The notes under the pieces: generated by a model | What the model saw: the letters and a program-made list of their open reading frames with translations, nothing else | What the model was told of the DNA's origin: nothing | Database searches by the model: none | Made by a program: the position numbers and the translations under genes | Shown here: piece after piece, positions 4,831 through 28,872 of the stretch | How the letters are laid out: each line of letters begins with the position of its first letter | How positions within the stretch are numbered: position 1 is the first letter of the stretch | Sequence record: OR753409.1 | Source: Enterobacter phage vB_EclS_AS5 | Length of the DNA stretch: 49,578 bases | Reading direction: 5' to 3' (one strand)

Positions 4831-4875
4831 GATAGCACTTTTTGCTAAAAACATTCAAAACGTAGGCGCTATTAT
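4831..4875 (+). promoter_or_regulatory. Regulatory cassette: core gATAGCACtttttTGCTAAAA, 22 bp, then TATTAT. It overlaps a divergent minus-strand TGtATAAT.
   Basis: Conserved core with 22-bp spacing to the -10. A minus-strand -10 (tgtataat) overlaps at about 4866-4877. Confidence 0.5.
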
Positions 4876-4907
4876 ACATTCAATCGGTTAACGAATAAAG
4901 GTTAAAA

Positions 4908-6908
4908 ATGGCAATTCCAAACATTGATAAACAGCTTTCCGCTTTGGGTGAGGCGGTAATTAAAGCGATTCAAGATCGCTTTACGTTTGGCGAAATCACC
5001 CCATACCCTTACCAGTGTGTTGCTTACACTGAGATCGCAAAACGCATGAAAAATTACGAACATCCTTTCTTTGTGAAAGCGTCCGTATCTGCTGGTAAAA
5101 CCATGATTTTTGCAATGGTAGCGGCTCAGTGCCAGAGAATGGGGCTTAAAATGATGGTTCTTGCTCGCCAGGGTGAGATCGTAGATCAGGATTCAGAGGA
5201 GATCAGTAATTTCGGCGTGCCTAACTCCGTTTACTGCGCGGCGCTGAAACTCAAGGGAGTACACTTCCCCATCGTTGTTGGTTCCGAGGGAACCGTTTCA
5301 AATGGACTCTTTAAGGCGCTTGGTGACTACGTGCCACACGTTATCGGGATTGACGAATGCCACCAAGTAGATTGGGAGGATTTAGCTGAGGCAATCGAAA
5401 ACGAGGAGCCGTGGGAGCAAATGACCACGAAAAAAGGCGAGATTGTCCTGAATGGTGACGGCTCCCGCGCTCTCAACAATGACGGCGAGCCAATGGAGGG
5501 AACCGGACGCACGCAATACACTCTTATAATTCGCGAAATGCAGCGCCGATGCAAAGAGACATACGGGCATGAGTTGCGCATTTTTGGAATGACTGGATCA
5601 GAGTTTCGCGGCGTTGTTCCAATCCTGGTAGAAGATAAGCGCCAGCGCGGTTTCTGGCGTGAACAGGTGACGAACATTGATACCAACTACCTTATCAAGT
5701 TCGGATCCGTTGTTCCTACAAATTTTGGCGGCGTGGATGGATTGGGTTATGACCTTTCAGAGTTCACGGCATCAAGTGAGGACGGCGTAGCAGACTTTGA
5801 CCAGAAAACTTTGCGCAAGATGGAGGAGAAGATCCATAAAGATGCAACCATGACGCAAAAAATCATGGCACGCGTGCATGAGATCTGCAAAGACAGAAAC
5901 GGCGTGCTGGTAACTTGCGCGGGTGAGCGTCACTGTAAAGAGGCCGCTGCCGCACTTCCGCCAGGAGCAACATACAGGATCATCACTGGAAAGACCGGAG
6001 AGAAACAACGTAAGGAATGGTTAAAGGAGGCATTCGAGGGGAAAGTAAAATACATTTTCCAGGTTCAAGCGCTAACAACTGGCGTAAACGTTCCATATTG
6101 GGACACGTCAGTTATCCTGCGCAAAATCGGATCGCTTACTCTGCTGATCCAGCTTTTGGGGCGCGGTATGAGACTTTTAAAGAAATGGCACATCGAGCAA
6201 GGATTCAAAAAAGACGATCACCTTGTTCTCGACTTTGCCGGATGTATGGACGAGTTGGGGCAACTTTACTTTGATCCTATTCTGGAACAAGCGCAGTATC
6301 AGCGCCGTGGCGACAACGGAAAAGATCCTAAATTCTGCCCTGACTGCGGCACGGAAAACTCATTCTATGCACGCCGTTGCATTCACGTTGACGAAAACGG
6401 AAATCGCTGTGAGTATTTCTGGAAGTATCGAGAGTGCGAGGATCAGGTAGACCCGAGAACGAAAAAGGTTGTCGTTAAAGGTTGCGGTACTAAAAACGAC
6501 ATATCCGCTAGAATTTGCCGTTGCTGTGACGTGTCGCTTATTGACCCTAACGAAAAGTTATCCGGCAAGCACTACACTAAAAACGATTGGTGTAATGTAA
6601 AATCATTCAGAGTTGACATGACCAAAAACCAGCGCGGGATCGTGTTCTGTTATGAGCTTGAGTCTCACGGCGAAACGTTCAAAGCTTATGAGCGATTCTT
6701 CCCTGAGTCTGACAACCAGATCTGCAAGACGCTATGGAGGCAAACGGCGCTCAAGCATATTGCAGATCGCAGGATTGCAGGTGTTACTGCGAGCTATCGA
6801 AACGCTCGCAAGATTATGCAAAACGCGCATCACATTATGGCTCCGAAACGCGTTACGCATCGCAAAAACGCGAAAGGAGAGGACATTATTTATCATCGGG
6901 AGTTTTGA
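4908..6908 (+). CDS. SF2 DEAH/DECH-box DNA helicase with a C-terminal zinc-finger region.
   Basis: Walker A SVSAGKT, motif II IGIDECHQ, and CPDCG...C..C Zn-binding cysteines near the C-terminus. Confidence 0.85.
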   Translation: MAIPNIDKQLSALGEAVIKAIQDRFTFGEITPYPYQCVAYTEIAKRMKNYEHPFFVKASVSAGKTMIFAMVAAQCQRMGLKMMVLARQGEIVDQDSEEISNFGVPNSVYCAALKLKGVHFPIVVGSEGTVSNGLFKALGDYVPHVIGIDECHQVDWEDLAEAIENEEPWEQMTTKKGEIVLNGDGSRALNNDGEPMEGTGRTQYTLIIREMQRRCKETYGHELRIFGMTGSEFRGVVPILVEDKRQRGFWREQVTNIDTNYLIKFGSVVPTNFGGVDGLGYDLSEFTASSEDGVADFDQKTLRKMEEKIHKDATMTQKIMARVHEICKDRNGVLVTCAGERHCKEAAAALPPGATYRIITGKTGEKQRKEWLKEAFEGKVKYIFQVQALTTGVNVPYWDTSVILRKIGSLTLLIQLLGRGMRLLKKWHIEQGFKKDDHLVLDFAGCMDELGQLYFDPILEQAQYQRRGDNGKDPKFCPDCGTENSFYARRCIHVDENGNRCEYFWKYRECEDQVDPRTKKVVVKGCGTKNDISARICRCCDVSLIDPNEKLSGKHYTKNDWCNVKSFRVDMTKNQRGIVFCYELESHGETFKAYERFFPESDNQICKTLWRQTALKHIADRRIAGVTASYRNARKIMQNAHHIMAPKRVTHRKNAKGEDIIYHREF

Positions 6909-6910
6909 AT

Positions 6911-7327
6911 ATGGTTACTGACAAAGGCGATTATCTGGAATATTACGAACGGGATCCGAGCGACACACGCAAGGAGGATTCACACCAGGTTGATTGTGTG
7001 GCGTGGTTGCGCCACCATTACCCACACTTGCTCTTTTGGCACACTGTTAATGAGGGGAGCAAGACGATCACCACCGCGCTGCGTGACGAACAGGCCGGAT
7101 TGCTAAAAGGAGTATCCGACTTTGTTATACTGATTGGTTCTGGTAAATACCCGTTCGCAGCCATAGAGCTAAAGCAAGTCAACAAATCAGGCAAGCGCAA
7201 GGCTTCACCAGTCAGCGATAACCAGAAAGCTTTCTTAAGTAAGGTTAGGCACCTGGGAGGTTTCGCAGCCGTTTGCTATGGCGTGAAGCAATTCAAGCTT
7301 GCAATTGCAGATCTCTTGCAGGAATAG
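6911..7327 (+). CDS. VRR-NUC domain PD-(D/E)XK nuclease.
   Basis: VSDFVIL...AAIELKQ fits a D...E.K catalytic core. ATG at 6911 is 2 nt after the helicase TGA. The stop TAG lies inside the cassette core. Confidence 0.7.
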   Translation: MVTDKGDYLEYYERDPSDTRKEDSHQVDCVAWLRHHYPHLLFWHTVNEGSKTITTALRDEQAGLLKGVSDFVILIGSGKYPFAAIELKQVNKSGKRKASPVSDNQKAFLSKVRHLGGFAAVCYGVKQFKLAIADLLQE

Positions 7328-7367
7328 CACTTTTTGCTAAAACAGTCGCAAAGGAATGCGCCATAAT
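7323..7367 (+). promoter_or_regulatory. Regulatory cassette: core AATAGCACtttttTGCTAAAA, 22 bp, then CATAAT.
   Basis: Conserved core and spacing. It is followed by the leader cacccaacgaaacaaacacggag. Confidence 0.55.
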
Positions 7368-7399
7368 GCACCCAACGAAACAAACACGGAGAATTAACC

Positions 7400-7678
7400 A
7401 TGAAAAAGATGTTATCAGTAGTTGCTTTATCGCTTGCCATTGTCGGTTGCATGGATAAACCAAAAGCATATATTTGCGGAAATGAAGTGTTTGAGGTTAC
7501 AAGCAAATACATGAAAGTTGTAAAAGGTAAAAACACGGGCGTTGTAATGGATAATATCAGCAAAAATAAATACAAGCTGTTTACGCCAATTGGAACAGCT
7601 TTTTACACTGTTAACGATAGCACCATTGATGTTAGAGTCGGAATCTTTCAGCACACTTTAACTTGCGAGGTGAAATAA
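7400..7678 (+). CDS. Small lipoprotein.
   Basis: Signal peptide MKKMLSVVALSLAIVGC with a lipobox. Confidence 0.65.
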   Translation: MKKMLSVVALSLAIVGCMDKPKAYICGNEVFEVTSKYMKVVKGKNTGVVMDNISKNKYKLFTPIGTAFYTVNDSTIDVRVGIFQHTLTCEVK

Positions 7679-7679
7679 A

Positions 7680-8426
7680 ATGGCTAAAGACATTTTGGAC
7701 AACTCAACAATCGACGGTATCGAGCAGGTTGATGAAATGGACTTTCACGAATTGCAGCACGGAAAGTATTCAGATATTTCACTGCGTTCAGGTGGTCATT
7801 ACCAGGCCGTGAAACCTTGCCAGTATTACAAGGTCACAGGAAACCGTTACGCCGGAAGCAACACTCCAGATGTTGTCCGTGACCTTTGGGCTACTCCACG
7901 CGATGTTGTTGCGTACATGGAAAACCGCTACGGCAAATATGATCTTGACGCTGCGGCAAGCGAGGACAATAAAGTATGTGAAAAATTCTACAGCAAGGAA
8001 ACCAACTGCTTAAAGCGCTGGTGGGGAAGCAAGAAGCACGTATGGCTTAATCCGCCATATTCAAATCCAGATCCGTTTGTGCTCAAGGCCATTGAGCAGA
8101 TGGAGCACTACAATCAGATCGATATATTGCTTCCAGCCGACAACTCAACGGCATGGTTTAGCGATGCGCAAAAGAACGCTGCGGAAATTATCTGGATCAC
8201 TGGCGAAACATGGAAAGATGAAGATGGGCGCGAGTATTCACGAACCGGACGATTAGCGTTTATTTCCGGCCTGACAGGTGAGCCAGTTAGCGGCAACAAC
8301 AAAGGCAGCGTGATTTTTGTCATGCGCAAATTGAAAGATGGTGAAACGCAACAAACTCACTACGTGAAAATCAGCGACATTTGCCCGTCAGTTAAAAACA
8401 AACGAGCCAAAGCAAGGAGTTTTTAA
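7680..8426 (+). CDS. dam: DNA N6-adenine methyltransferase of the phage T1 Dam family.
   Basis: Catalytic NPPY motif (WLNPPYSN). Start coupled as TAAAATG. Confidence 0.8.
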   Translation: MAKDILDNSTIDGIEQVDEMDFHELQHGKYSDISLRSGGHYQAVKPCQYYKVTGNRYAGSNTPDVVRDLWATPRDVVAYMENRYGKYDLDAAASEDNKVCEKFYSKETNCLKRWWGSKKHVWLNPPYSNPDPFVLKAIEQMEHYNQIDILLPADNSTAWFSDAQKNAAEIIWITGETWKDEDGREYSRTGRLAFISGLTGEPVSGNNKGSVIFVMRKLKDGETQQTHYVKISDICPSVKNKRAKARSF

Positions 8427-8537
8427 TGAAACATGATCTTGCATCACTTGGAATGCTTTGTGCATTCATGATCGGCGGCGGTTTTTGTTCTTACGCGCTC
8501 ATTGCGCTAATCATCAAAATAGGGGAGTTGATTTAAT
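8427..8537 (+). CDS. Small membrane peptide of 36 aa (hypothetical).
   Basis: MKHDLASLGMLCAFMIGGGFCSYALIALIIKIGELI, with one transmembrane segment. Its stop overlaps the next ATG. Confidence 0.3.
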
Positions 8538-8784
8538 GGGCGAGAGAAATTTGACACTAAACGAGACTGGTTTATTTCTGCTGTATCGCGCTATGGTGTG
8601 CCAGGCTATTGACCTAAATCCACACATTAAGGATGTAATAGAGGTTGACCCGTGGGAGTATTCCAGCGCTCTTGACATGAGCTTTGAGGAAACCGCAAAA
8701 CTACCTCTTGAGAAGTGGCATATCAAGATTGCTGATGATCTGGATGAAATGTGGCAAGACCTTAAAAAGCGAGTTGCTCACTAA
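8537..8784 (+). CDS. Hypothetical protein of 82 aa.
   Basis: ORF starting MGERNLTLNETG... The stop TAA lies just before the cassette core. Confidence 0.5.
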
Positions 8785-8828
8785 ATAGCACTTTTTGTTA
8801 AAAATGCCCGGCTAAAGTCGGGCATAAT
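8784..8828 (+). promoter_or_regulatory. Regulatory cassette: core AATAGCACtttttTGTTAAAA, hairpin GCCCG..CGGGC, then CATAAT.
   Basis: 22 bp from TTGTTA to CATAAT. Leader aaaaccactgaggaaaacgaaATG. Confidence 0.5.
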
Positions 8829-8860
8829 CATTTCCAACGAAAACCACTGAGGAAAACGAA

Positions 8861-9070: not shown

Positions 9071-9308
9071 GCAAGGCCGAGAGGCCGTTTGGAATCACGC
9101 AAAAGAAACCGGAATGGCAGACGATATAGCACGAATTGCCAAAATCTTTGATCTGGCTGATGTTAGTATTATCAGCGACGGGAAAATGACTTACTTGCAC
9201 GAGAGGCCGCGCAAAATGCATCGCGTGCCAGCAATCCCGACAAAAATTGACTTCAAAGAAGCAATGGCAAAAATCAGAGAGCCTAAAAAGTATTACAAAG
9301 GAGAATAG
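9060..9308 (+). CDS. Hypothetical protein of 83 aa.
   Basis: ATG at 9060 (MKVEQGREAV...) after ggagggaaaaa. It overlaps the preceding ORF end. Confidence 0.5.
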   Translation: MKVEQGREAVWNHAKETGMADDIARIAKIFDLADVSIISDGKMTYLHERPRKMHRVPAIPTKIDFKEAMAKIREPKKYYKGE

Positions 9309-9402
9309 TCATCATGTGGAGCTTGCTTGTTCTTCCAATGCCCGTTATCATTGCCGCCGTTGTTATGTACGCACTTGTTATGTGATTTAAGAGGAAAAAT
9401 TA

Positions 9403-10521
9403 ATGATTCAGAAAATGACAGACCAGCAGTTTAAAGACGCACGAGCGGAGGGTAAAACCTACAAGCAGATCGCGGATGAGTTCGGTTTGAATGTTCGCAC
9501 CGTTGAGCGACGCGCGGCACGCCTTGCTCGCCAGGGTGAGACTGACACGAAAGGAGCACCAGGTTTTGCGGTTGTTCGTGAGTCAGTCCTGACCCGCGCA
9601 AACGGAGAAGAAGTGATGCGCTGGACTATCACCAACAAAGATAAAGAGCAGTTGGAAGCACTCATGCAAGCCGCGATGGATGCATTTGCTGAGGAAGTGC
9701 CGCGCCTTGAGCCTCAGCCGGAAAGCCGAAATGACTACAGCGAAAGCCTGGCTCTATACCCTATCTTTGACATGCACATTGGCGCAATGGCTCACAAGCA
9801 TGAATGTGGTGAGAATTGGGATACTGCAACAGCCGAGAAAGTCATGAATGACTTCTTTGATTATGCGGTTGAGTGTGCGCCAAATAGCGAGAAAGCCGTG
9901 CTCCTGATTGGTGGTGATATGCTTCACAGTGACGGCCTGGAGGCTGTAACACCTGCCAGCGGTCACGTTCTGGATCAGGATAGCCGCTACGCTAAACTTG
10001 TTTATGTCGCAATCCGAGCAACTCGCCGCGCTATCTCATTGATGTTAACCAAGCACAAAGAGGTTGAAATTCAGGTGATCGAGGGCAATCATGACCAATC
10101 AGGCATGATCTGGCTACGCGCAGCAATGGCTGCGGCATACGAGGACGAGCCGCGCGTGATGGTTGATGTTTCTCCCCGCGTTGTGCATCACACGCAGTAC
10201 GGAAAAACCTTCCTCGCTTATCATCACGGTCACACCGTGCGCAAGCCGGAAACGTTATTGATGATGTGCGCGGCAGATTGGCGCGAGGATTTTGGCAAAT
10301 CAAAATCAATGTATGCTCATGTAGGCCATTGGCATCACCAGACCGTAACAGAAACCAGCCTTGGGATTGTTGAAGTTCATAGCACTATGGCGGCTAAAGA
10401 TGCATATGCGGCTCGCGGTGGTTGGCGCTCTCGTCGTCGCGCTGCGGTTATCATCTACGATAAAGAGCACGGAGAGATCGGGCGCTTTATGTTCTACCCT
10501 GAAATGATGGAGTCAAAATAA
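9403..10521 (+). CDS. Fusion protein: an N-terminal HTH (sigma70 region-4/LuxR-like) joined to a calcineurin-like metallophosphoesterase.
   Basis: N-terminus TYKQIADEFGLNVRTVERRAARLARQ. Phosphoesterase motifs LLIGGDMLHSD and VIEGNHDQ, plus His-rich HHGH and HWHH. Confidence 0.65.
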   Translation: MIQKMTDQQFKDARAEGKTYKQIADEFGLNVRTVERRAARLARQGETDTKGAPGFAVVRESVLTRANGEEVMRWTITNKDKEQLEALMQAAMDAFAEEVPRLEPQPESRNDYSESLALYPIFDMHIGAMAHKHECGENWDTATAEKVMNDFFDYAVECAPNSEKAVLLIGGDMLHSDGLEAVTPASGHVLDQDSRYAKLVYVAIRATRRAISLMLTKHKEVEIQVIEGNHDQSGMIWLRAAMAAAYEDEPRVMVDVSPRVVHHTQYGKTFLAYHHGHTVRKPETLLMMCAADWREDFGKSKSMYAHVGHWHHQTVTETSLGIVEVHSTMAAKDAYAARGGWRSRRRAAVIIYDKEHGEIGRFMFYPEMMESK

Positions 10522-10691: not shown

Positions 10692-10713
10692 CATTTAACT
10701 TCATGAGCTTACA

Positions 10714-11034: not shown

Positions 11035-11036
11035 TC

Positions 11037-14029: not shown

Positions 14030-14056
14030 CTTAAAGTCTCCTTGTTGGTTGACCCG

Positions 14057-14102
14057 TATTATAGGTAAACCATCTTACAGCCTTTTAGCAATTCGTGCTA
14101 TT
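14057..14102 (-). promoter_or_regulatory. Regulatory cassette on the minus strand: AATAGCACgaatTGCTAAAA, 22 bp, then TATAAT.
   Basis: Reverse complement of 14083-14102 equals the core. The -10 is at 14057-14062. The stop TAG of the upstream gene (14098) lies in the core. Confidence 0.55.
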
Positions 14103-14726: not shown

Positions 14727-14755
14727 TATTTACTCCTTTGGTTTGATGTGGTTGC

Positions 14756-14800
14756 ATAATAGCGGATCTTATCGACCCGCTTTTAACAAAAAGTGCTATT
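14756..14800 (-). promoter_or_regulatory. Regulatory cassette on the minus strand: core aatagcactttttgttaaaa, 21 bp, then TATTAT.
   Basis: Reverse complement of 14781-14800. An imperfect hairpin gcgggtc..gatccgc precedes the -10. The Dcm stop TAG lies in the core. Confidence 0.5.
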
Positions 14801-15509
14801 TTGAGTTAGCCAGCCATACAGCAATCGCCAGGCCGCGAGGAGTTAGCGAGCGAATCAGTTTTGTTCGCGCTGATTTACCGCCTAATTTCTTCCAGCCTGG
14901 ATTATCATTACCAACCGGATCCACTGGTAAATGCTCAGGCATCACAAAGCCGTTACCAGTCCAAAGGCAAGTTTTCTTATTGTAAGCGTCGCTCGCTGGG
15001 ATGATATCAGGGAAAGCAGGGTGCGCTTCATCCTTGATATGGATATAGCCGCCATAGTCGCACGGATGGAATTTGTGATCCGGCTTGCGCCATAGCGTTG
15101 ACAGCTTGCCTACAGGGTTTTCGATCATGTACGGAGCGCCAAAGTGATCAGCAATCTCCGCCGCAATCTTGCAGGTCGCCGCCGCCTTAACCTGGAAATC
15201 TGGATCAATCTCTGCTTTTCGCTTCCAGTGGCGAGAGCCGGAGTTTGCAAGGTCAGTACATGGAGGAAACGCCATAATGAAATCAGGCTTACCCCAAAGC
15301 AGGTTGCACGCGCTCGCCTTGAAATCATCGTCAATCCAGGCGTTAACATATTCAATGTTCGGATGCGTTACGCGCACTGACTGGTACGAGCCGTGATCAC
15401 CTTCATCGGCATTGAAGCAGACGACTTTATAACCAGCTTTAGCCCACGGAAGCGCCGCATAGCCGGAGCCGTCGAACATTGAGAAAACCAGGCCTTTACG
15501 TTCAAACAT
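14796..15509 (-). CDS. DNA cytosine-C5 methyltransferase-like protein, small and Dcm-like.
   Basis: Motif I FSMFDGSGYA, motif IV AFPPCTDLANSG (a PC dipeptide) and motif VI MIENPVGKL (ENV). The likely start is MFERKG at 15509 with RBS gaggtg. Confidence 0.55.
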   Translation of the reverse strand: MFERKGLVFSMFDGSGYAALPWAKAGYKVVCFNADEGDHGSYQSVRVTHPNIEYVNAWIDDDFKASACNLLWGKPDFIMAFPPCTDLANSGSRHWKRKAEIDPDFQVKAAATCKIAAEIADHFGAPYMIENPVGKLSTLWRKPDHKFHPCDYGGYIHIKDEAHPAFPDIIPASDAYNKKTCLWTGNGFVMPEHLPVDPVGNDNPGWKKLGGKSARTKLIRSLTPRGLAIAVWLANSK

Positions 15510-16029: not shown

Positions 16030-16054
16030 TCGTTTGTCCTCGCTCGTTGTCGAT

Positions 16055-16105
16055 GGCGCTACTATACAAGGTCGCAGCGCCGGAGTTTTAACAAAAAGTG
16101 CTATC
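16055..16105 (-). promoter_or_regulatory. Regulatory cassette on the minus strand (class A): core, 22 bp, then TATAGT flanked by the inverted repeat GGCGCT/AGCGCC.
   Basis: Reverse complement of 16086-16105 is the core. The -10 is at 16062-16067 with IR arms at 16055-16060 and 16076-16081. Confidence 0.55.
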
Positions 16106-16941: not shown

Positions 16942-16972
16942 TTCGTTTTCCTCAGTTCGTTTCGATGAATGC

Positions 16973-17017
16973 ATTATGCCAAATCCAGATCACGTAGTTT
17001 TAGCAAAAAGTGCTATT
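16973..17017 (-). promoter_or_regulatory. Regulatory cassette on the minus strand driving the leftward early operon: core, 22 bp, then CATAAT.
   Basis: Reverse complement of 16998-17017 is aatagcactttttgctaaaa. The -10 is at 16973-16978. Confidence 0.5.
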
Positions 17018-17024
17018 CAATCGG

Positions 17025-17140
17025 TAGTTAGATGATTTGGTGATTTTCTGACCTGCATTTTGATGGTTAGTTTGATGCGCGTCAGCTTTTGACGAGATTT
17101 GATGATTGTTGATTAGATTTGATTGGATTTGATTGTGGGA
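17025..17140. repeat. Cluster of 5-6 direct GATTTGATTG-type iterons in the divergent early control region, a candidate replication origin.
   Basis: gatgatttggtgatttt, ttttgatggttagtttgatg and gatttgatgattgttgattagatttgattggatttgattgtggg, embedded in 690 bp of AT-rich non-coding DNA. Confidence 0.55.
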
Positions 17141-17594
17141 ATCATCATGGTCTGACGATGCCGTTTTTGCGCTCCAGAAAACTCCATTCTGTTATTTCCT
17201 GTTTACACTCGTTTCCTCTTGTTACCGAAAGTACGGTGGCGTAGTTTGTTCGCGTTTTTCGCGTGACGAAAACAAAAAAAACTTTCAATCACCCTATAAA
17301 CAACTAATAAAATCAATAGTTTATTTTATATATGTTATGTTTGTTTTCACTACGTTATACTTGTTCCATATGGTATGGTGTGGTTATGGGATTTTATTAT
17401 TGGTGGTATTGGTTAATTTATAGGCATTTTCCGCTCAGGATGTGTGCGATTCATCATTGGGCTATGGTTGCTTTGGGTGACATATACATATCTATTATGG
17501 CCTCCGAAAAAACTGTAACACCGGTAACATGGAAAAAACACGTTTTGTGGTTAAGCAAATCAGTAACTTACGACAAATTTTGTTTTTTGGCTCA

Positions 17595-17631
17595 AAAAAA
17601 ACTTGTGGAAACCGATTGTAACATGCATAAT
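17595..17631 (+). promoter_or_regulatory. Sigma70-type promoter TTGTGG-N17-CATAAT for the rightward early operon.
   Basis: cTTGTGGaaaccgattgtaacatgCATAAT followed by the conserved-type leader caccacgaaacgaacaaacggagg. Confidence 0.45.
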
Positions 17632-17663
17632 GCACCACGAAACGAACAAACGGAGGTAAAACT

Positions 17664-18089
17664 ATGTCAGATCAATCATTTGGCGATCAGTTGCGTGCAG
17701 CAGCGCGAATGTTGGCGAGTGGCGAGCGTGATGAAATCATCATGACCGACTACCAGTTACAGCAAGCGTCCGGCAAGGAGAAAATCAACCCAAGCCACAT
17801 CCGTACCACGATGGCGCGAGAGGTTCGCACCCTGGGAGCTATCAGCGTGAAGCGAATCACGGATCCGATTGGGTACGTTTGCACATTCAACCCTGATCCG
17901 AAAAAGCGAGCGGTTGCCAGCGACGAGCTACCAGCTATCAAGGTGCGAGCGGCTAACAAGTCGCTGAAAGCGATTGCAGACGTTATGCCAAATCTCACAG
18001 ACCTGGAGGGAGAGCAGTTGCAGGGCGCTATCATTGCAGTGCAGCGCTACCAGGATTTAATCAAGAAGCAAATCAAAGAGGAGGCTTAA
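17664..18089 (+). CDS. Hypothetical early protein of 141 aa.
   Basis: First gene of the rightward early operon. RBS acggaggtaaaactATG. Confidence 0.6.
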   Translation: MSDQSFGDQLRAAARMLASGERDEIIMTDYQLQQASGKEKINPSHIRTTMAREVRTLGAISVKRITDPIGYVCTFNPDPKKRAVASDELPAIKVRAANKSLKAIADVMPNLTDLEGEQLQGAIIAVQRYQDLIKKQIKEEA

Positions 18090-18358: not shown

Positions 18359-18403
18359 AATAGCACTTTTTGCTAAAACAGCCCCGCGAGAGTGGGGCAT
18401 AAT
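18359..18403 (+). promoter_or_regulatory. Regulatory cassette (class B): core, hairpin GCCCC..GGGGC, then CATAAT.
   Basis: 22 bp from TTGCTA to CATAAT. Confidence 0.55.
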
Positions 18404-18436
18404 AGCCTCAACTAAACGAATTGAGGAGATAGTAAA

Positions 18437-18685
18437 ATGACTAAAGCACAAGAAATGAAGAACATCATGGAATCAGCAAAGATGATGCTCGAATTTTCAA
18501 CCAAGCAGGAATTGATCGACAACCTTCATAAGGTGTGCATGATTGACAATGCTGGTGATATCGCGTACCGCACTATTTTTGAACAGTACATGAGCATGAG
18601 CGCCGTTCTTCATCCGTCCGTGGCGATTGACAACATTATTGCAGGGATCGAAAAACATGCAGACCACTACAACACGAGTAAGTAA
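18437..18685 (+). CDS. Hypothetical protein of 82 aa.
   Basis: RBS gaggagatagtaaaATG. Confidence 0.55.
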   Translation: MTKAQEMKNIMESAKMMLEFSTKQELIDNLHKVCMIDNAGDIAYRTIFEQYMSMSAVLHPSVAIDNIIAGIEKHADHYNTSK

Positions 18686-19450: not shown

Positions 19451-19501
19451 AATAGCACGAATTGCTAAAACACCAGATCGGGGTTGCGCTATAGTAACCC
19501 C
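19451..19501 (+). promoter_or_regulatory. Regulatory cassette (class A): AATAGCACgaatTGCTAAAA, 22 bp, then TATAGT in the loop of the inverted repeat GGGGTT/AACCCC.
   Basis: Core 19451-19470, -10 at 19490-19495, IR arms at 19480-19485 and 19496-19501. Confidence 0.6.
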
Positions 19502-19532
19502 ATCGAAACGAAACGAACCAAAGGGGTTTAGC

Positions 19533-19712
19533 ATGGATAAGGTTATGATGATGAGCGAAATAAAAGCAGGAATGATGGTTAAGTTCGGTGGAGTCTATCG
19601 CTTGGTTCTGAATAACTGCCGCAAGGAGAACATCCTTACTATCCGCGTGAGAGGCAAGGCTCAACTCATCGCACCTGCTGGAGATATAGAGCTTGAGGTA
19701 AGAATCAAATAG
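19533..19712 (+). CDS. Small hypothetical protein of 59 aa.
   Basis: ATG after gggtttagc. The stop TAG is embedded in the next cassette core. Confidence 0.45.
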   Translation: MDKVMMMSEIKAGMMVKFGGVYRLVLNNCRKENILTIRVRGKAQLIAPAGDIELEVRIK

Positions 19713-19758
19713 CACGAATTGCTAAAAACTGGATCGGGTGTGCTGGTATAGTACACCC
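19708..19758 (+). promoter_or_regulatory. Regulatory cassette (class A): core, 22 bp, then TATAGT flanked by GGGTGT/ACACCC.
   Basis: Core 19708-19727, -10 at 19747-19752, IR arms at 19736-19741 and 19753-19758. Confidence 0.6.
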
Positions 19759-19783
19759 ATACCAAACAACTGAGGAATTAACA

Positions 19784-19951
19784 ATGAAATCTCGCAAATA
19801 CCGCAACATCTTCAACAACCTGGCGTACTGGCTGGAGGACGGCGCTGTCATGGTTAGCAACGGCGAGCAAACAAAGAAATCGCTGTTAAGCGCAGAGGAG
19901 TTTTTCATTGCGGTCGCTCGTGACATTCTGGTACTGATCGAGGAGGAATAA
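19784..19951 (+). CDS. Small hypothetical protein of 55 aa.
   Basis: RBS gaggaattaacaATG. Confidence 0.45.
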   Translation: MKSRKYRNIFNNLAYWLEDGAVMVSNGEQTKKSLLSAEEFFIAVARDILVLIEEE

Positions 19952-20938: not shown

Positions 20939-21150
20939 TTGTGACGCACGATGTAGAGCCAGGCGCGAGCACTGCGCAGGACATGGTTGCCGGAATGCCG
21001 CCAAAATCGCACAGAATGGTGCGTATACGCGGTTATAAATTCAATGTAAGCCAAACACTCAAGGAAATTTTAGCCTTGCCAGAAGTCGATACAGCGATTG
21101 TGGGAGTGCATACAAACGAATATGTTTCTTTCCACATTGTGACGAAATAG
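20935..21150 (+). CDS. Hypothetical protein of 71 aa.
   Basis: ATGA overlap. The stop TAG lies inside the cassette core. Confidence 0.5.
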   Translation: MIVTHDVEPGASTAQDMVAGMPPKSHRMVRIRGYKFNVSQTLKEILALPEVDTAIVGVHTNEYVSFHIVTK

Positions 21151-21190
21151 CACGAATTGCTAAAAACGGGGTGGGCAACCCCGTTATAAT
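21146..21190 (+). promoter_or_regulatory. Regulatory cassette: core, hairpin ACGGGGT..ACCCCGT, then TATAAT.
   Basis: Core 21146-21165, -10 at 21185-21190, 22-bp spacing. Confidence 0.6.
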
Positions 21191-21222
21191 GCACCCATAC
21201 CAACCAACGAGAGGAAAACAAA

Positions 21223-21872: not shown

Positions 21873-22103
21873 ATGATTGAGATCAAATTCAAAGGCAACA
21901 CCAAGCGATTCAACGGCGCACCAATCCACAAGGACGCAACGCACGCGGTAGCTGGTCGCAATTTCGGCACTTACTTTAAGCTCAACGGCGAATGGTATTT
22001 CACTGTTTTCCCTGGTTACGCTCTTAAATGCATGGTTGCAGATCAGGATTTTGATATCCGCAAACACATCAAAGACGACGCGGAAATCACAGAGCTTAAA
22101 TAG
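21873..22103 (+). CDS. Hypothetical protein of 76 aa.
   Basis: RBS aaaggagtaacaagATG. The stop TAG lies in the cassette core. Confidence 0.55.
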   Translation: MIEIKFKGNTKRFNGAPIHKDATHAVAGRNFGTYFKLNGEWYFTVFPGYALKCMVADQDFDIRKHIKDDAEITELK

Positions 22104-22150
22104 CACTTTTTGCTAAAGACTTTCCGCGAGGCCATTGTTATAGTGGCCTC
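22099..22150 (+). promoter_or_regulatory. Regulatory cassette (class A): core, then TATAGT flanked by GAGGCCA/TGGCCTC.
   Basis: Core 22099-22118, -10 at 22139-22144, IR arms at 22128-22134 and 22144-22150. Confidence 0.55.
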
Positions 22151-22182
22151 ATTGAAAGCAACCACGCAAACAGGAGATAAAA

Positions 22183-23091: not shown

Positions 23092-23187
23092 CACACCGAA
23101 CGATCCAAAAGAGCCATTTGACTTCCACAAGGCCGCCGTTATCGGCCTTACAATCCTGACCATCTTTTACACTGTGCGAGGTGTTTT

Positions 23188-23385
23188 ATGGCTGTTAACA
23201 CACTAAAGCGAATCGGCGTTATCATGCTAATTATCGGAGGGTCATTGCTAACAGAACCAGGTTTTGCAAACACGGTTGGAAGTATGGCGCTGTTAATTGG
23301 CGGTCTTATTGGCGGCTACATGGACGGCGTAAAGGCTGGGCGGCGTGAGGCGTTCGGCGGCGAAGATAAAAATCCGATCAAATAG
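23188..23385 (+). CDS. Small membrane protein of 65 aa.
   Basis: Two hydrophobic segments. The stop TAG lies in the cassette core. Confidence 0.5.
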   Translation: MAVNTLKRIGVIMLIIGGSLLTEPGFANTVGSMALLIGGLIGGYMDGVKAGRREAFGGEDKNPIK

Positions 23386-23431
23386 CACGAATTGCTAAAA
23401 CAGGTTAAAGGGCTTGCGGTATAGTAAGCCC
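23381..23431 (+). promoter_or_regulatory. Regulatory cassette (class A): core, 22 bp, then TATAGT flanked by GGGCTT/AAGCCC.
   Basis: Core 23381-23400, -10 at 23420-23425, IR arms at 23410-23415 and 23426-23431. Confidence 0.6.
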
Positions 23432-23458
23432 ATACCAAACAAACAGGAGGAAAACGAA

Positions 23459-23677
23459 ATGAAATTCTCTATCTACCGCGCAATCGACATCACTGATGGT
23501 CATGACTCACTTTTCCTTGTTCGTGAGGATAGCAAAGAGGCAATATGTATTTTTTATTTTGCCGACTACCAGATTGACCACCTGAGAGATTGCGCCAAGA
23601 ATTACGAGAATGAATTGTGGTTCTCAAGCGAGAGCCTTATGCGAGAGCAAACACTGATTGAAGTTATTGAGATTTGA
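23459..23677 (+). CDS. Hypothetical protein of 72 aa, paralogous to the product of 21453..21680.
   Basis: RBS caggaggaaaacgaaATG. N-terminus MKFSIYRAIDITDGHDSLF. Confidence 0.55.
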   Translation: MKFSIYRAIDITDGHDSLFLVREDSKEAICIFYFADYQIDHLRDCAKNYENELWFSSESLMREQTLIEVIEI

Positions 23678-23725
23678 CATCACGAATTGCTAAAACTTCC
23701 GCTAGGGCATTTGATATAGTGCCCT
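23678..23725 (+). promoter_or_regulatory. Regulatory cassette with a degenerate core (catcacgaatTGCTAAAA), 22 bp, then TATAGT flanked by AGGGCA/TGCCCT.
   Basis: -10 at 23715-23720, IR arms at 23704-23709 and 23720-23725. Confidence 0.5.
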
Positions 23726-23761
23726 CATTGAAGTAAAGCAACCAATCAAGGAGATAACGAA

Positions 23762-24677: not shown

Positions 24678-24729
24678 AATAGCACTTTTTGCTAAAACTC
24701 AGATGGGGGTAGGCTGGTATAGTTACCCC
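24678..24729 (+). promoter_or_regulatory. Regulatory cassette (class A): core, 23 bp, then TATAGT flanked by GGGGTA/TACCCC.
   Basis: Core 24678-24697, -10 at 24718-24723, IR arms at 24706-24711 and 24724-24729. Leader catcgaaacgaaacggagaaacgaaaATG. Confidence 0.6.
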
Positions 24730-24754
24730 ATCGAAACGAAACGGAGAAACGAAA

Positions 24755-24973
24755 ATGGCAGTATTTACAGAAAGCTACTTTGAAGCACGTCGCACTTATG
24801 GCGCAATCATGGCGGGTTGCCAGTATGAGCTTGTGGCAACCGATGATGGATATGGCCTCGTGATTGACGATTGCGGCACTTGCTACGAGGTGACTTTCGA
24901 TAAGTACGATCCAGATGTGGCTATGCTGAAAAATGCACCACTGATTAAATTTGACCGTGTGGAGGAAGAATGA
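24755..24973 (+). CDS. Hypothetical protein of 72 aa.
   Basis: ORF with the conserved leader and an RBS. Confidence 0.55.
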   Translation: MAVFTESYFEARRTYGAIMAGCQYELVATDDGYGLVIDDCGTCYEVTFDKYDPDVAMLKNAPLIKFDRVEEE

Positions 24974-25230
24974 TCCAGATTAACCTTTCAGTGCAGCAAG
25001 CGCGGCAACTCCTTGAGTCCCTGGGCTGGCGCATCGACATCGGCAATGTGTCGGCTTGTCACGTTGACTCAGAAGTTGCAAAGGAAATGTTTATGCAGCT
25101 TGAGCAAAAGCTGATGCCAGTGGGAACCGAACAGGCGAATCTGGCGGCATGGCGTGCAGAAGCTGGTTACACTGCAAAAGCCGTCGAGGATTGGAAGCGC
25201 AAGAATGAGACAATGGAGGGTTTTGAATGA
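24970..25230 (+). CDS. Hypothetical protein of 86 aa.
   Basis: ATGA overlap. Confidence 0.55.
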   Translation: MIQINLSVQQARQLLESLGWRIDIGNVSACHVDSEVAKEMFMQLEQKLMPVGTEQANLAAWRAEAGYTAKAVEDWKRKNETMEGFE

Positions 25231-25547
25231 TTTTCGTACACACATACAAGATTGGAACAAACGAGAACAAGAAAGAGCGCCGCGCTATTTGGGATAGCCA
25301 AGAGGAGGCGCTTGCGCAGCAGAGAGTTTTGGGTGGCGTGGTTCAGGCGTTTGAGGCAGTTGAAAACCTCGCAGCAAACGAGTATTACAAAGACGTTATT
25401 GTTGACGAGGTGGCAACCATTATCGACGAAATGAGCACAGACGCGCCAGGCTCGCCACGAGAGCTTGAGCCAGGTTCGGCGGCATGGGATAGCTACAAAG
25501 TTAAGACGCTGAATAACATTCGCGATCTACTTGACGAAATTAATTAA
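25227..25547 (+). CDS. Hypothetical protein of 106 aa.
   Basis: ATGA overlap. Confidence 0.55.
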   Translation: MIFVHTYKIGTNENKKERRAIWDSQEEALAQQRVLGGVVQAFEAVENLAANEYYKDVIVDEVATIIDEMSTDAPGSPRELEPGSAAWDSYKVKTLNNIRDLLDEIN

Positions 25548-25613
25548 AATTCTATAGCGTTTAAAGCGCCTCAGAGCGATTCTAAGAGGTGCAAATTTTA
25601 GGAAGGTGATTAC

Positions 25614-25742
25614 ATGGATAACTACGAAAAACCGTCTCAGTGGTGCGCACGCAAGCAGGAGGAGGCGCTTGAGCGCGGAGACCAGAAAGCGTCTTTAAAT
25701 TATTTTCAGATGTTCCAACTTTGGCAAAGCAGAGGGCTATAA
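25614..25742 (+). CDS. Small hypothetical protein of 42 aa.
   Basis: RBS ggaaggtgattacATG. Confidence 0.4.
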   Translation: MDNYEKPSQWCARKQEEALERGDQKASLNYFQMFQLWQSRGL

Positions 25743-25743
25743 A

Positions 25744-25974
25744 ATGTTCGGATTGAATGAGGCAGAATTCAACATCGTCAAGCGTGCGGCAAAAGATTGC
25801 GTAAACGAGATCGCTGATCGCATTGAGCAGAAGGACGAGAAATATGATCGCATTGCTGCGGGTGTTATTTGCAAACACTATCAGCCGATTAGCACTCTGC
25901 TAACGAAAACGCAGTTTATATGGCTCGCCGGATATCTGCGCGGAAGGTGGGGAAAGAATTTTGACCGCGAATGA
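25744..25974 (+). CDS. Hypothetical protein of 76 aa.
   Basis: TAAAATG coupling to the preceding ORF. Confidence 0.5.
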   Translation: MFGLNEAEFNIVKRAAKDCVNEIADRIEQKDEKYDRIAAGVICKHYQPISTLLTKTQFIWLAGYLRGRWGKNFDRE

Positions 25975-26116
25975 TTGACGTCACGCCTCTGATTGGTTAA
26001 CCTAATCCACGTAAACATAAGAGGCTTAATCGAGCAACGCGCCAGGCGACACTGGCAACTACAGCGCCGCGCTGGTTATTTAACCGTAAGACGCGGCGTT
26101 TTAACAGGAGAAAGCA

Positions 26117-26284
26117 ATGAAACGATATCCAGAAGAAAGCGCAAAGGTAACAATCATCGTTGAGCGAAACGGAGTAAAAACTCGCTATAAGAAGCGATTC
26201 AAGAAAGGCGAGGCGATGTTAGGCCGAATCTCTGATTTCATGGTCAAGATTCAAGAGGATAAACCAGATGAAATGGAAGGTTAA
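26117..26284 (+). CDS. Small basic protein of 55 aa.
   Basis: RBS caggagaaagcaATG, an 18-nt context identical to the ssb RBS. Confidence 0.45.
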   Translation: MKRYPEESAKVTIIVERNGVKTRYKKRFKKGEAMLGRISDFMVKIQEDKPDEMEG

Positions 26285-26453
26285 GCTTACCATCCGGCGA
26301 ATGGGGCGACAATGCCGCTCCTGTAAGCAAGTTTTTGAATGCGAGGTTTCAGCCTCAAGCGAGGTAGAGGCGGCGCAGTTTGCAAAGGAGCTTTCTGGTG
26401 CAGATCCAGAAACACACAAATTCTCAATTGACTATTTAAGGAGTTTATCATGA
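26268..26453 (+). CDS. Hypothetical Cys-containing small protein of 61 aa.
   Basis: Overlaps the previous ORF. Contains CRSCKQVFECEV. Confidence 0.5.
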   Translation: MKWKVKLTIRRMGRQCRSCKQVFECEVSASSEVEAAQFAKELSGADPETHKFSIDYLRSLS

Positions 26454-26683
26454 TCTTAGGCTTTGTAATTGGATTCGTTACCGCTATCGTTATGGTTATT
26501 ATTATCGGCGGAGCAGCGCAGAAATACGCAATCAAAAAAGGCTGGTTTGCTTCCGCTATCTGGATCGAGAAAGAGAAGCGCTGGAAAGTGCGCGGTCGAT
26601 TCCTAAGTGTGGCATCTAAGCTTCACGCTGGCATCCTTGAAGAATACCGCTCAGGGCGGAAAACCGTCAAATACGTAGATTAA
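26450..26683 (+). CDS. Small membrane protein of 77 aa.
   Basis: N-terminal TMD ILGFVIGFVTAIVMVIIIGGAA. Confidence 0.5.
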   Translation: MILGFVIGFVTAIVMVIIIGGAAQKYAIKKGWFASAIWIEKEKRWKVRGRFLSVASKLHAGILEEYRSGRKTVKYVD

Positions 26684-26686
26684 TCG

Positions 26687-26713
26687 AAGCCCCGCGTTTG
26701 CGGGGTTTTTTTG
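26687..26713 (+). terminator. Rho-independent terminator at the end of the early region.
   Basis: GCCCCGC-gttt-GCGGGG followed by TTTTTTT. Confidence 0.75.
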
Positions 26714-26752
26714 TGCCTGTTATAATTGGCCTCCAACAAGAGGAGGCTAACC

Positions 26753-27283
26753 ATGAGCAGAGAAGAAAAGCAAAAGCCATTCACGGCTTACAATTTCAAG
26801 AAGCTATATAACAAGCAATATGGCGACATTGCCACGTTAGGCAAGCAACACCGATACACGCCGGAGCAGGTTTTCAATCTTGCTGTCAAATACTTTGAAT
26901 GGGCTGAGTCCAATGCACTAAAGGCGGCTGAATCTTCATCGTTCCAAGGTCGCACGTACCAGGATGAAGTAAACAAGCCACGCGTTTTCACTTTCAACGG
27001 TCTGCGCCTGTTTTGCGGCTGGTCGCGCTGCGCGATGGAGAAATGGAAGAAAGAGCCTGGCTTCTCTGAGGTCATGGAGTTTATCGAATCTGTGATCTAT
27101 GAGCAAAAATTCCAGCTTGCGGCTAACGGCGTGATCAACGCTGCATTCATCGCCAAAGATTTAGGAGTTGATCAGCCAGCGCAAATCAACGTTAGCGCAA
27201 ACTCTGAGTCAAGCGCTGCAATCGCAGAGGTTGGAGCAGACGAGGTGCGCGAGGCGGTTCGTGATATTCTGGCGGAGATTTAA
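26753..27283 (+). CDS. Terminase small subunit.
   Basis: Sits directly upstream of terL. RBS aggaggctaaccATG. Confidence 0.6.
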   Translation: MSREEKQKPFTAYNFKKLYNKQYGDIATLGKQHRYTPEQVFNLAVKYFEWAESNALKAAESSSFQGRTYQDEVNKPRVFTFNGLRLFCGWSRCAMEKWKKEPGFSEVMEFIESVIYEQKFQLAANGVINAAFIAKDLGVDQPAQINVSANSESSAAIAEVGADEVREAVRDILAEI

Positions 27284-27285
27284 TC

Positions 27286-28857
27286 ATGCTGATTTGGGAA
27301 GATTTAACAGTGGCGCAGAAACGCGCCATTAAAGAAATGAGTGAATACTCGTTCGAGAAAATGATCCGTATATGGTTTCAGTTGCTACAGGGGCAGAAGT
27401 TTTTAGGCAACTGGCATTTCAGCTACTTGTGCCACGAGGTGGAGAAAATCATTTCCGGCGAATCGCAAAACGTGATCTTCAACATCACGCCAGGCTCAGG
27501 TAAGACTGAGGTTTTCTCGATCCATATGTCGCCTTATGCGTCGCTGAAAAGCAAGAAGGTGCGAAACCTCAACTTGTCATTCTCTGATGGCCTTGTCCAG
27601 CAGAACAGCAACCGAATCAAGGAAATTATCGGCTCTCCAGAATGGCAGGAGCTATGGCCTGGCAAGCTGGCGAAAGCGAGCGCGAAAGATCTGATTGTGC
27701 AGGACGGCAACGGCAAGGTTAAATTGCAGGTCAACTCTCGCTCCATCGGCGGACAGGTAACGGGTTTGCGTGGCGGCTACATGGATGATGGATTTACAGG
27801 AATGTTGGTACTTGACGATCCAGATAAACCTGACGACATGTTTTCAAAGGTGCGCCGCGAAGCGATTCACAGCCGCCTCAAAAACACCGTTCGATCTCGT
27901 CGAATGAAAGACACCACGCCTATTGTGATGGTTCAGCAGCGCTTGCACGTCAACGATTCGACGTGGTTTATGACAAGCGGCGGTATGGGTGGCATTGAGT
28001 TTAAGGTTGTAAGCATTCCGGCACTGGTAACGAAAGAGTATGGCGATTCGCTACCTGATTGGTTAAAACCAGAGTTTGAGCGTGACGTGCTGAGTAGCGA
28101 GCCAGTTTACATTGACGGCGTGGCTCATTACTCATTCTGGCCTGCAAAGGAGAGTGCAAAGGACTTGCTCGCACTACGGGAAGCGGATCCGTATACTTTT
28201 GCGTCTCAGTACCAGCAACAGCCAATAGCGCTGGGTGGTAACGTGTTCAAGGTGGATTGGTTCCAGTTTTACGGCGACGGAGAGAAATGCACGCTACCGA
28301 AACCGGATCGCTTTGAATATACGTTTATCACTGGCGATACGGCGCAGAAAGCCGGAGAGCTTAACGACTACTCTGTTTTCTGCTATTGGGGCATGTTCAA
28401 GAATCGCGTTTACTTCATTGACGGCATACGCGGAAAATGGGAGGCTCCAGATCTTGAGACGAATTTCAAGGCTTTCGTCAATCAGTGCTGGAAGCGCAAC
28501 AAGGAGTGTGGCAGCTTGCGCCGGATCCACATAGAGGACAAAGCGAGCGGTACGGGTTTGATTCAGGGTGCGCAAAAGAGCTTGCCTATTGATATAAATC
28601 CCGTTCAGCGCAGCACGGACAAAGTTACACGCGCAATGGATGCCGCGCCAGTTATGCGAGCCGGACGCGTTGCTCTACCAGAGAGTCACCCGATGTTAAA
28701 CGAGATTCTCGCAGAGGTAGCGGCTTTCACTTTCGACGACTCACATCCAAACGACGATATCGTAGATAACATTGTTGATGCTGTTAACGTTGAAATGAAC
28801 CTTGCAGACGATCCAGTTGCGCGAATGAAAAAGCTTGCTGGGCTACGGAAGAAATAG
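27286..28857 (+). CDS. Terminase large subunit.
   Basis: N-terminal ATPase with Walker A ITPGSGKT and Walker B LVLDDPD, plus a C-terminal nuclease region. The stop TAG lies in a cassette core. Confidence 0.9.
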   Translation: MLIWEDLTVAQKRAIKEMSEYSFEKMIRIWFQLLQGQKFLGNWHFSYLCHEVEKIISGESQNVIFNITPGSGKTEVFSIHMSPYASLKSKKVRNLNLSFSDGLVQQNSNRIKEIIGSPEWQELWPGKLAKASAKDLIVQDGNGKVKLQVNSRSIGGQVTGLRGGYMDDGFTGMLVLDDPDKPDDMFSKVRREAIHSRLKNTVRSRRMKDTTPIVMVQQRLHVNDSTWFMTSGGMGGIEFKVVSIPALVTKEYGDSLPDWLKPEFERDVLSSEPVYIDGVAHYSFWPAKESAKDLLALREADPYTFASQYQQQPIALGGNVFKVDWFQFYGDGEKCTLPKPDRFEYTFITGDTAQKAGELNDYSVFCYWGMFKNRVYFIDGIRGKWEAPDLETNFKAFVNQCWKRNKECGSLRRIHIEDKASGTGLIQGAQKSLPIDINPVQRSTDKVTRAMDAAPVMRAGRVALPESHPMLNEILAEVAAFTFDDSHPNDDIVDNIVDAVNVEMNLADDPVARMKKLAGLRKK

Positions 28858-28872
28858 CACGAATTGCTAAAA
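28853..28872 (+). promoter_or_regulatory. Cassette core AATAGCACgaatTGCTAAAA with no -10 at the usual spacing. A terminator follows instead.
   Basis: The core is present but the 22-bp spaced -10 is replaced by a terminator hairpin. Confidence 0.4.

Follow-up and report, generated by a model that had tools for sequence, protein, structure and literature searches.

The stretch of DNA analysed here, referred to as the window, comprises 49,578 nucleotides (nt) of Enterobacter phage vB_EclS_AS5 (OR753409.1) and is a complete or nearly complete Drexlerviridae (T1-like) genome, collinear with Escherichia phage Henu7 (Tempevirinae). Its genes are separated at many points by short repeated cassettes, in which a conserved 20-nt core is followed by a -10-like hexamer, a leader and a start codon. 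As judged from its sequence, the core matches the asymmetric site read by MarA, SoxS and Rob of E. coli, the soxbox or marbox (AYNGCACNNWNNRYYAAAYN; PMC2064960), rather than a palindrome. We consider it fairly probable that each cassette is a compact class II marbox promoter combined with a hairpin that bounds the transcription unit, read by a host activator and used also as a joint for recombination.

Exact copies of the palindrome TAGCA-N5-TGCTA number 12 in the window, where 0.05 would be expected, and a fuzzy search gave AATAGCAC-N4-TGCTAAAA as the core of 18 co-oriented intergenic cassettes and a few degenerate copies. An earlier note on this DNA had described a 20-nt core recurring on both strands, and all copies that it listed were found again, with plus-strand starts at 4831, 7323, 8784, 18359, 19451, 19708, 21146, 22099, 23381, 24678 and 28853 and minus-strand copies at 14083-14102, 14781-14800, 16086-16105 and 16998-17017. 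The copy it placed at 23678 exists but begins at 23676; the one at 49138, taken to be degenerate, is a full promoter copy (49130-49149); and the one at 3274 has no -10 at the correct spacing. Copies at 4375-4394 (minus, the primase promoter), 9125 (plus) and 33361-33380 (minus) were absent from that list. The hexamer that the note placed 22 base pairs (bp) after TTGCTA lies, in other terms, 18 bp past the 20-nt marbox, four copies having 17 or 19 bp instead, and the TAG of the core does serve as the stop codon of the upstream open reading frame (ORF) in eight cases (7327, 19712, 21150, 22103, 23385 and 28857, and on the minus strand 14098 and 14796). The cassettes are listed below in window coordinates, with the ATG of the gene that follows.

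4320-4395, minus: cassette before the primase gene; marbox 4375-4394, with zero mismatch to AYNGCACNNWNNRYYAAAYN; TGgTATCAT, -10 at 4352-4357, enclosed between the arms of a hairpin (ATCGCGTA/TACGCGAT) with a T-run; ATG 4319
4831-4907, plus: cassette before the helicase gene; marbox 4832-4851; -10 TATTAT 4870-4875; predicted +1 at 4882; ATG 4908
7323-7399, plus: cassette; marbox 7324-7343; spacer hairpin GCGCA/TGCGC; -10 CATAAT 7362-7367; ATG 7400; upstream stop is the core TAG, 7325-7327
8784-8860, plus: cassette with the TTGTTA variant; marbox 8785-8804; spacer hairpin TGCCCG/CGGGCA, the final two bases of which are the first two of the -10; -10 CATAAT 8823-8828; ATG 8861
14030-14102, minus: cassette before the gene for a 525-amino-acid helicase; marbox 14082-14101; -10 TATAAT 14058-14063; ATG 14029; upstream stop is the core TAG
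14727-14800, minus: cassette; marbox 14780-14799; spacer hairpin GCGGGTC/GATCCGC with one G·T pair; -10 TATTAT 14756-14761; ATG 14726
16030-16105, minus: cassette; marbox 16085-16104; hairpin GGCGCT/AGCGCC around the -10 TATAGT 16061-16066; ATG 16029
16942-17017, minus: first leftward cassette of the divergent region; marbox 16997-17016; TGgCATAAT, 16973-16978; ATG 16941
18359-18436, plus: cassette; marbox 18360-18379; spacer hairpin GCCCC/GGGGC, the final base of which is the first of the -10; -10 CATAAT 18398-18403; ATG 18437
19451-19532, plus: cassette bordering on the left a cassette-plus-ORF insertion that is specific to the window; marbox 19452-19471; hairpin GGGGTT/AACCCC around the -10 TATAGT 19490-19495; leader ATCGAAACGAAAC; ATG 19533
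19708-19783, plus: cassette, right flank of the same insertion; marbox 19709-19728; hairpin GGGTGT/ACACCC around TGgTATAGT, 19747-19752; ATG 19784
21146-21222, plus: cassette; marbox 21147-21166; spacer hairpin CGGGGT/ACCCCG; -10 TATAAT 21185-21190; ATG 21223
22099-22182, plus: cassette; marbox 22100-22119; 19-bp spacer; hairpin GAGGCCA/TGGCCTC around TATAGT 22139-22144; ATG 22183
23381-23458, plus: cassette; marbox 23382-23401; hairpin GGGCTT/AAGCCC around TATAGT 23420-23425; ATG 23459
23676-23761, plus: cassette bordering on the right a second unit specific to the window; core (ACATCAC...) damaged at the junction; hairpin AGGGCA/TGCCCT around TATAGT 23715-23720; ATG 23762
24678-24754, plus: cassette; marbox 24679-24698; 19-bp spacer; hairpin GATGGGG/CCCCATC around TGgTATAGT, 24718-24723; ATG 24755
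49130-49207, plus: cassette 3' of the exonuclease VIII gene; marbox 49131-49150, no mismatch; 17-bp spacer; hairpin ATGGAGG/CCTCCAT around TGtTATAAT, 49168-49173; ATG 49208

The repeat family itself is already published. Phage TLS carries 18 intergenic 21-nt direct repeats (aaATAGCACnnnTTGnTAAAA) that run along the direction of transcription about 76 nt before start codons, and T1, Rtp and Rogue1 carry them too according to the TLS authors, who found only three sigma-70-like promoters, left the role of the repeat open and suggested stoperators, enhancers or UP elements (PMC11447400). The TLS repeat, with its T, G and A subgroups, is the same element as the window core, which is likewise of the aaATAGCACnnnTTGnTAAAA type, intergenic and co-oriented, with 72-85 nt from marbox to ATG. 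The TLS paper contains no marbox match, fixed 18-bp distance to the -10, nested hairpins or recombination breakpoints (PMC11447400). The class II marbox identity of the T1-family repeat, its nested RNA hairpins and its spread across families were not found in searches of the open-access literature, nor was anything there that connects the marbox, SoxS or Rob with T1-like phages.

When the window was searched with AYNGCACNNWNNRYYAAAYN at up to one mismatch, 22 matches were obtained where 1.2 were expected, and a second marbox consensus for MarA, GCAHWWWWTGYYAAA, which includes T12-G13 (PMC6900184), gave 19 where 1.7 were expected. The marbox register is that of the core moved by one base; in it the core agrees at 18 of 19 specified positions, or at 15 of 15 for the shorter consensus, the latter figure being that of the T-type (CTTTT) cores. 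Natural marboxes from the E. coli marRAB promoter (ATGCCACGTTTTGCTAAAT) and from micF (ACAGCACTGAATGTCAAAAC) were compared as well, and the phage cores are much nearer to the consensus than host sites are. Sites from the window, T1, TLS and Rtp were then pooled, which gave 80 marbox matches, 61 of them with a good -10 at 17-19 bp; counts out of 61 below refer to this set. None of the 61 sites departs from A1, G4, C5, A6 or A17, and C7, G13, A16 and A18 are kept in 59-60 of them, while variation is found at the positions where the marbox is itself degenerate, namely 2 (T/C), 8-10, 14 (C/T), 19 and 20.

The geometry of the sites is equally constrained. A marbox followed by 18 nt and TANNNT is found 19 times in the window (0.27 expected), 19 times in TLS (0.63 expected) and 16 times in Rtp (0.36 expected), and the distance from marbox to -10 is exactly 18 bp in 53 of the 61 sites and 17 or 19 bp in the others. 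The micF promoter of E. coli has the same spacing, with 18 bp between its marbox and TAGAAT. Class II marbox promoters are characterised by a forward-oriented site centred near -41, no recognisable -35 element and a canonical -10, the activator ousting sigma region 4 from the -35 (PMC10268841, PMC8811837). All 18 composite sites of the window share the strand of the -10 and of the downstream gene, as do those of T1, TLS and Rtp; the hexamers are TATAGT, CATAAT, TATAAT and TATTAT; and agreement of the phage -35 window with TTGACA averages about 1.7 of 6 positions, compared with 1.9 in Salmonella class II promoters (PMC10268841). Seven bases past the hexamer, 52 of the 61 sites have an A, the likely +1, at which transcription is predicted to start, so that the marbox would extend from about -50 to -31, centred near -40.5. 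Between 16.9 and 29 kb there is no excess of canonical sigma-70 promoters (10 found, 15.9 expected). The earlier note had pictured a promoter that lacks a -35 and has a good -10 preceded by a site where a class II activator would sit, and this fits the 61 sites of all four genomes; its expectation that related Drexlerviridae would carry the core holds for T1, TLS and Rtp, which show the same arrangement. At the level of sequence, marbox identity, promoter geometry and their conservation across the family are all evident. The window sites differ from the class II MarA/SoxS/Rob(RamA) promoters of E. coli and Salmonella, with which they share the site, its forward orientation, the 18 bp of micF, the want of a usable -35 and the canonical -10, in that they stand on a virulent phage as its main early promoter type, at about 18-20 per 49 kb, and combine the site with a nested hairpin and an upstream stop codon inside it.

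Such nested hairpins, which the earlier note does not mention, are carried by most of the cassettes. In roughly one promoter in two, spacer bases at about -25 to -18 can pair with the six that directly follow the -10, so that the hexamer lies in the loop, and in most of the others a GC-rich hairpin within the 18-bp spacer abuts the -10. Complementarity of at least 6 nt was found in 18 of 34 spacer-discriminator pairs from the same promoter against 2% of swapped pairs (p <= 2e-4; window and T1), and in 24 of 61 against 3% across the four genomes. The letters of the stem differ from promoter to promoter (GGGGTT/AACCCC, GGGTGT/ACACCC, GAGGCCA/TGGCCTC, ATGGAGG/CCTCCAT and so on) and the pairing is conserved, i.e. 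the two arms covary. In a set of 77 stems drawn from seven genomes, the non-Watson-Crick pairs within stems comprise 38 G·T and 6 A·C, a bias which points to pairing in sense-strand RNA and disfavours a DNA cruciform. The 3' arm ends at -1, and RNA started at the promoter would therefore lack the hairpin, which would be carried by read-through RNA only. Its role is most likely termination, attenuation or 3'-end protection of upstream transcripts, by which neighbouring units would be insulated. The T1 record annotates the spacer hairpins as terminators; T-runs follow only some of them (4394 on the minus strand and 28884-28907). No Rfam family match was found anywhere in the window.

The earlier note had likened the cassettes to modular joints of the promoter-early stem-loop (PeSL) type and had raised the possibility that breakpoints in gene order fall at the cores. 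Comparison with Henu7 and JohannLBurckhardt agrees with both points, as breakpoints fall inside cassettes and two cassette-plus-ORF units (19515-19707 and 23402-23680), each between two cassettes, are extra in the window. Ends of high-scoring segment pairs (HSPs) are found at cassettes at 18439, 19514/19708, 21146/21225, 22099/22175, 23401/23681 and 24757. About 10 of some 22 unique HSP ends, which are not independent of one another, lie within 5 nt of cassette zones that make up 8.9% of 17.1-25 kb; the raw count, likewise of non-independent ends, is 23 of 38. The gene at 19784 has a different cassette in Henu7, with the crossover within the leader, and at 22100 the Henu7 core has a different upstream half, with the crossover within the marbox. 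Shuffling of the PeSL kind is supported by these comparisons. PeSL cassettes were described in the T4-type phages RB49 and phi1 (PMC2839356, PMC4122927). Like the window cassettes, they have the upstream stop codon in the region before the promoter, the Shine-Dalgarno sequence and start codon after it, and a stem-loop with G-T pairs between the promoter boxes or overlapping the -10, and they are located among many small ORFs where indels and replacements are bounded by cassettes. PeSLs, however, contain a consensus -35/-10 sigma-70 promoter with AT-rich sequence upstream, whereas the window cassettes have no -35 and carry instead a marbox with a near-invariant GCAC. In the first 30 kb of RB49 the marbox is not enriched (12 matches, 9.6 expected); membership of the original RB49 PeSLs in the same sequence family was accordingly rejected, and the two kinds of cassette appear to be analogues, not homologues.

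The core was found in 1152 phage records, with several copies per genome, from Drexlerviridae and also from Straboviridae of about 175 kb, the latter T4-like phages having 4-7 cassette copies each. The Enterobacter phage EC-W1 (Pseudotevenvirus; L008, 3998-4097) and the Klebsiella phage Matisse (Slopekvirus; L009, 61-147) carry the same core. Downstream of it come a terminator hairpin, whose loop contains a TTGCAT -35, then a -10 and finally the leader of T1 type, ATCGAAACGAAAC; this arrangement suggests that cassettes have been transferred between phage families. Some T1-like carriers of the core are deposited under the hosts Pseudomonas (Motto, PsgS01F) and Campylobacter jejuni (about 20 records), where host misassignment is possible.

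The core is thus common to unrelated enterobacterial phages and no common phage regulator accompanies it, which favours a host reader. No MarA or SoxS homologue was found in the phage by tblastn with MarA and SoxS sequences as queries (best E 0.47), and no AraC/HTH_18 domain was seen among 55 early ORFs in Pfam (best 25 of 30 matched families). The phage helix-turn-helix (HTH) proteins put forward as readers by the earlier note fare poorly in this role. The regulator at 4381-4818 (minus) is Cro/YdaS-like, with a single HTH, weak family matches and no likeness to AraC; it has matches in 830 records, in which every sampled row was a genome of 41-57 kb and none was of Straboviridae size, so that T4-like carriers of the cassette are missing from the sampled rows. 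The DUF7174 protein at 17664-18086 is not AraC-like either, has no relative in the PDB and occurs in only 210 phage records, on which ground it was rejected as a universal reader. The 372-amino-acid protein at 9403-10521 has an N-terminal HTH like sigma-70 region 4 (Pfam Sigma70_r4_2, E 1.2e-5, just below cut-off), and its relatives are annotated as DNA repair exonucleases or phosphoesterases. A host reader, namely Rob, MarA or SoxS, is favoured, and we infer that it binds and activates at the core, such that the T1-like phage probably drives most of its early genes through a host activator. Rob, which is constitutively expressed and abundant, is most likely the best candidate because it is made without stress, with MarA, SoxS or RamA adding to its effect under stress.

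Several observations weigh against this assignment. Unstressed cells contain little MarA and SoxS, yet T1-like phages multiply readily in plain medium, and we know of no report of T1 resistance in rob, marA or soxS mutants; the open-access literature has nothing either way on such mutants and T1. Rob is kept in inactive clusters under standard growth (PMC10268841). At A3 and at position 19, where A predominates, the phage consensus allows less variation than the marbox; A is also frequent just upstream, and the core is partly palindromic, so a second, phage-encoded reader could exist. An extended -10 (TGn) is present in 25 of the 61 sites (41%), which might fire without an activator, and in the T4-like cassettes 29-30 bp separate the marbox from the -10, a distance that does not fit class II geometry. 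Finally, at least one early promoter has no marbox: at 17593-17632, ahead of the first rightward genes, A8 and TTGTGG-17-CATAAT are found, and a phage activator could consequently be made first. The leader of the first rightward gene (17593-17663; the DUF7174 gene at 17664) is otherwise cassette-like, with a CATAAT -10 and the marbox replaced by A8 and TTGTGG 17 bp upstream, and it may be an activator-independent immediate-early promoter.

Some of these points would sit more comfortably with a phage factor that reads the palindrome TAGCA-N5-TGCTA and activates or shuts off the early promoters, the marbox likeness being incidental or secondary. This idea, which is near to the stoperators and enhancers of the TLS authors and for which the Cro/YdaS-like regulator at 4381-4818 (minus) or an unrecognised early protein would be candidates, draws on the 12 exact palindromes, on A3 and T12, the bases needed to make the palindrome complete, being conserved more strictly than the older marbox consensus demands, and on the position of the regulator gene, present in the 830 Drexlerviridae-like records, between two cassettes at a divergent promoter region; the non-marbox promoter before the first rightward genes makes an activator made first conceivable. 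We nevertheless regard it as unlikely. The earlier note had proposed a dimeric factor, yet the core fits the asymmetric marbox of the monomeric MarA, SoxS and Rob, and the palindromic pairs change without compensation. Pair 4-14 is found as G:C 25 times and as G:T 14 times, being complementary in 62% of sites; G4 never changes, its partner being either C or T. Pair 2-16 is disrupted in 25% of sites. The promoters at 4394 (minus) and 49131 have broken palindromes and nonetheless perfect marboxes with good -10 hexamers. T12-G13, moreover, belongs to the newer MarA consensus (PMC6900184), and the cassette occurs in Straboviridae, from which no sampled match to the regulator came. The regulator has a single HTH and weak family matches, and DUF7174 is limited to 210 records.

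The extended -10 would also suit an element that needs no activator, in which UP-element-like sequence or a contact with sigma or the C-terminal domain of the alpha subunit assists a strong -10, expression being constitutive and the core conserved mainly as homology for recombination. The A/T-rich 3' half of the core (TTGCTAAAA), which lies at the position of the proximal UP subsite, the breakpoints within cassettes and the proposal of UP elements by the TLS authors (PMC11447400) are in keeping with this. It is distinctly improbable in our judgement, because the near-invariant GCAC and its exact 7-nt gap to AAA are recognition elements of the MarA type and not features of UP elements, which are A/T-rich from -60 to -40 with no G/C-specific positions, whereas here G4, C5, C7 and G13 are invariant or nearly so, and because recombination homology alone does not explain a -10 spacing fixed within 1 bp. 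The same spacing bears on the notion that the marboxes are a sponge titrating host MarA, SoxS and Rob, or stress sensors, and not essential promoter elements. The near-consensus sites, about 20 in each genome and multiplied as genomes are copied, and the late-region marboxes without a -10 at 28853 and 33361-33380 could be read in this way, but with 53 of 61 sites exactly 18 bp from the -10 and all co-oriented with the downstream gene, promoter function appears to be the primary constraint, and we give a sponge very little credence.

If the cassette is a class II marbox promoter read by the host, it would act as a compact boundary between transcription units, its parts following in the order of the upstream stop codon (often the core TAG), the 20-bp forward marbox at about -50 to -31, the 18-bp spacer, the sigma-70 -10, an A at +1 seven nt past the hexamer, and an A/C-rich leader of 22-35 nt with the ribosome-binding site. 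A monomeric activator with two HTH motifs would sit over the -35 region, replace recognition by sigma region 4 and recruit RNA polymerase. The nested hairpin, present in read-through RNA only, would terminate, attenuate or stabilise that RNA and so insulate the units, and the conserved core and leader would offer short homology by which cassette-plus-ORF units could be inserted, deleted or swapped. T4 middle promoters, in which the MotA box and AsiA act by sigma appropriation, similarly have no -35 and use an activator site in place of sigma region 4 recognition. The MotA box, (a/t)(a/t)(a/t)TGCTTtA, is however centred near -30 and has a phage-encoded reader with a co-factor, while the window site ends at -31 and no phage reader was found for it.

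Three further sites depart from the common form.

9125-9175, plus: possible internal promoter within an ORF; marbox with 1 mismatch, 18 bp, weak -10 TAGTAT; kept in Henu7
28853-28930, plus: late-region variant in the terL/portal gap; the terL stop is the TAG of a perfect core; strong intrinsic terminator at 28884-28907 with a T-run; no -10 at class II distance
33355-33409, both strands: marbox-like site readable on both strands; minus copy 33361-33380 with no mismatch, then a hairpin (GAGGCTGTTA/TAACAGCCT) just before the major capsid gene

The reverse marbox and hairpin before the major capsid gene are also present in T1 (15067-15086), TLS (about 14999-15042) and Henu7 (32652), with no -10 at class II distance. 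The structural block at 28900-47300 contains no composite marbox promoter and no obvious canonical promoters, and the T1 record has a terminator after almost every late operon. Two non-coding regions between diverging genes were also noted. At 4819-4907, 89 bp separate the genes for the HTH regulator (start 4818, minus) and the helicase (4908), and here TATTAT on the plus strand (4870-4875) and TATAAT on the minus strand (4871-4876) overlap face to face, with the marbox in the leader of the regulator. At 17020-17663, about 640 bp between the divergent early gene blocks hold several AT-rich inverted repeats, three iteron-like copies of TTTGAT(T/G)(A/G)GATTTGAT at 17088-17133 and two copies of CAAAAAAAACTT, at 17273 and 17593; the region may serve as an origin, for packaging (pac) or for control.

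T1-like phages often contaminate laboratories and are candidates for therapy; the class II marbox reading of their repeat offers a concrete hypothesis on their transcription that simple experiments can test. The broader proposition, that Drexlerviridae together with some T4-like Klebsiella and Enterobacter phages have wired their early and middle transcription to host MarA, SoxS and Rob through near-consensus class II marboxes, is held more tentatively, at a little short of even. If the class II marbox reading itself holds, promoter-plus-hairpin cassettes would be seen to move between unrelated phage families, and these genomes would provide a natural set of very strong, compact, insulated and activator-dependent promoters. 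Were the broader proposition true as well, the open question about TLS and T1 would be answered. Phage marboxes could then drain MarA, SoxS and Rob from the host regulon, and phage expression would depend on, or be tuned by, the regulators of tolerance to antibiotics, bile and oxidative stress. Susceptibility to such phages would be linked to the mar/sox/rob status of clinical isolates, and this coupling to the multidrug-resistance and stress regulon would be relevant to the combination of phages with antibiotics.

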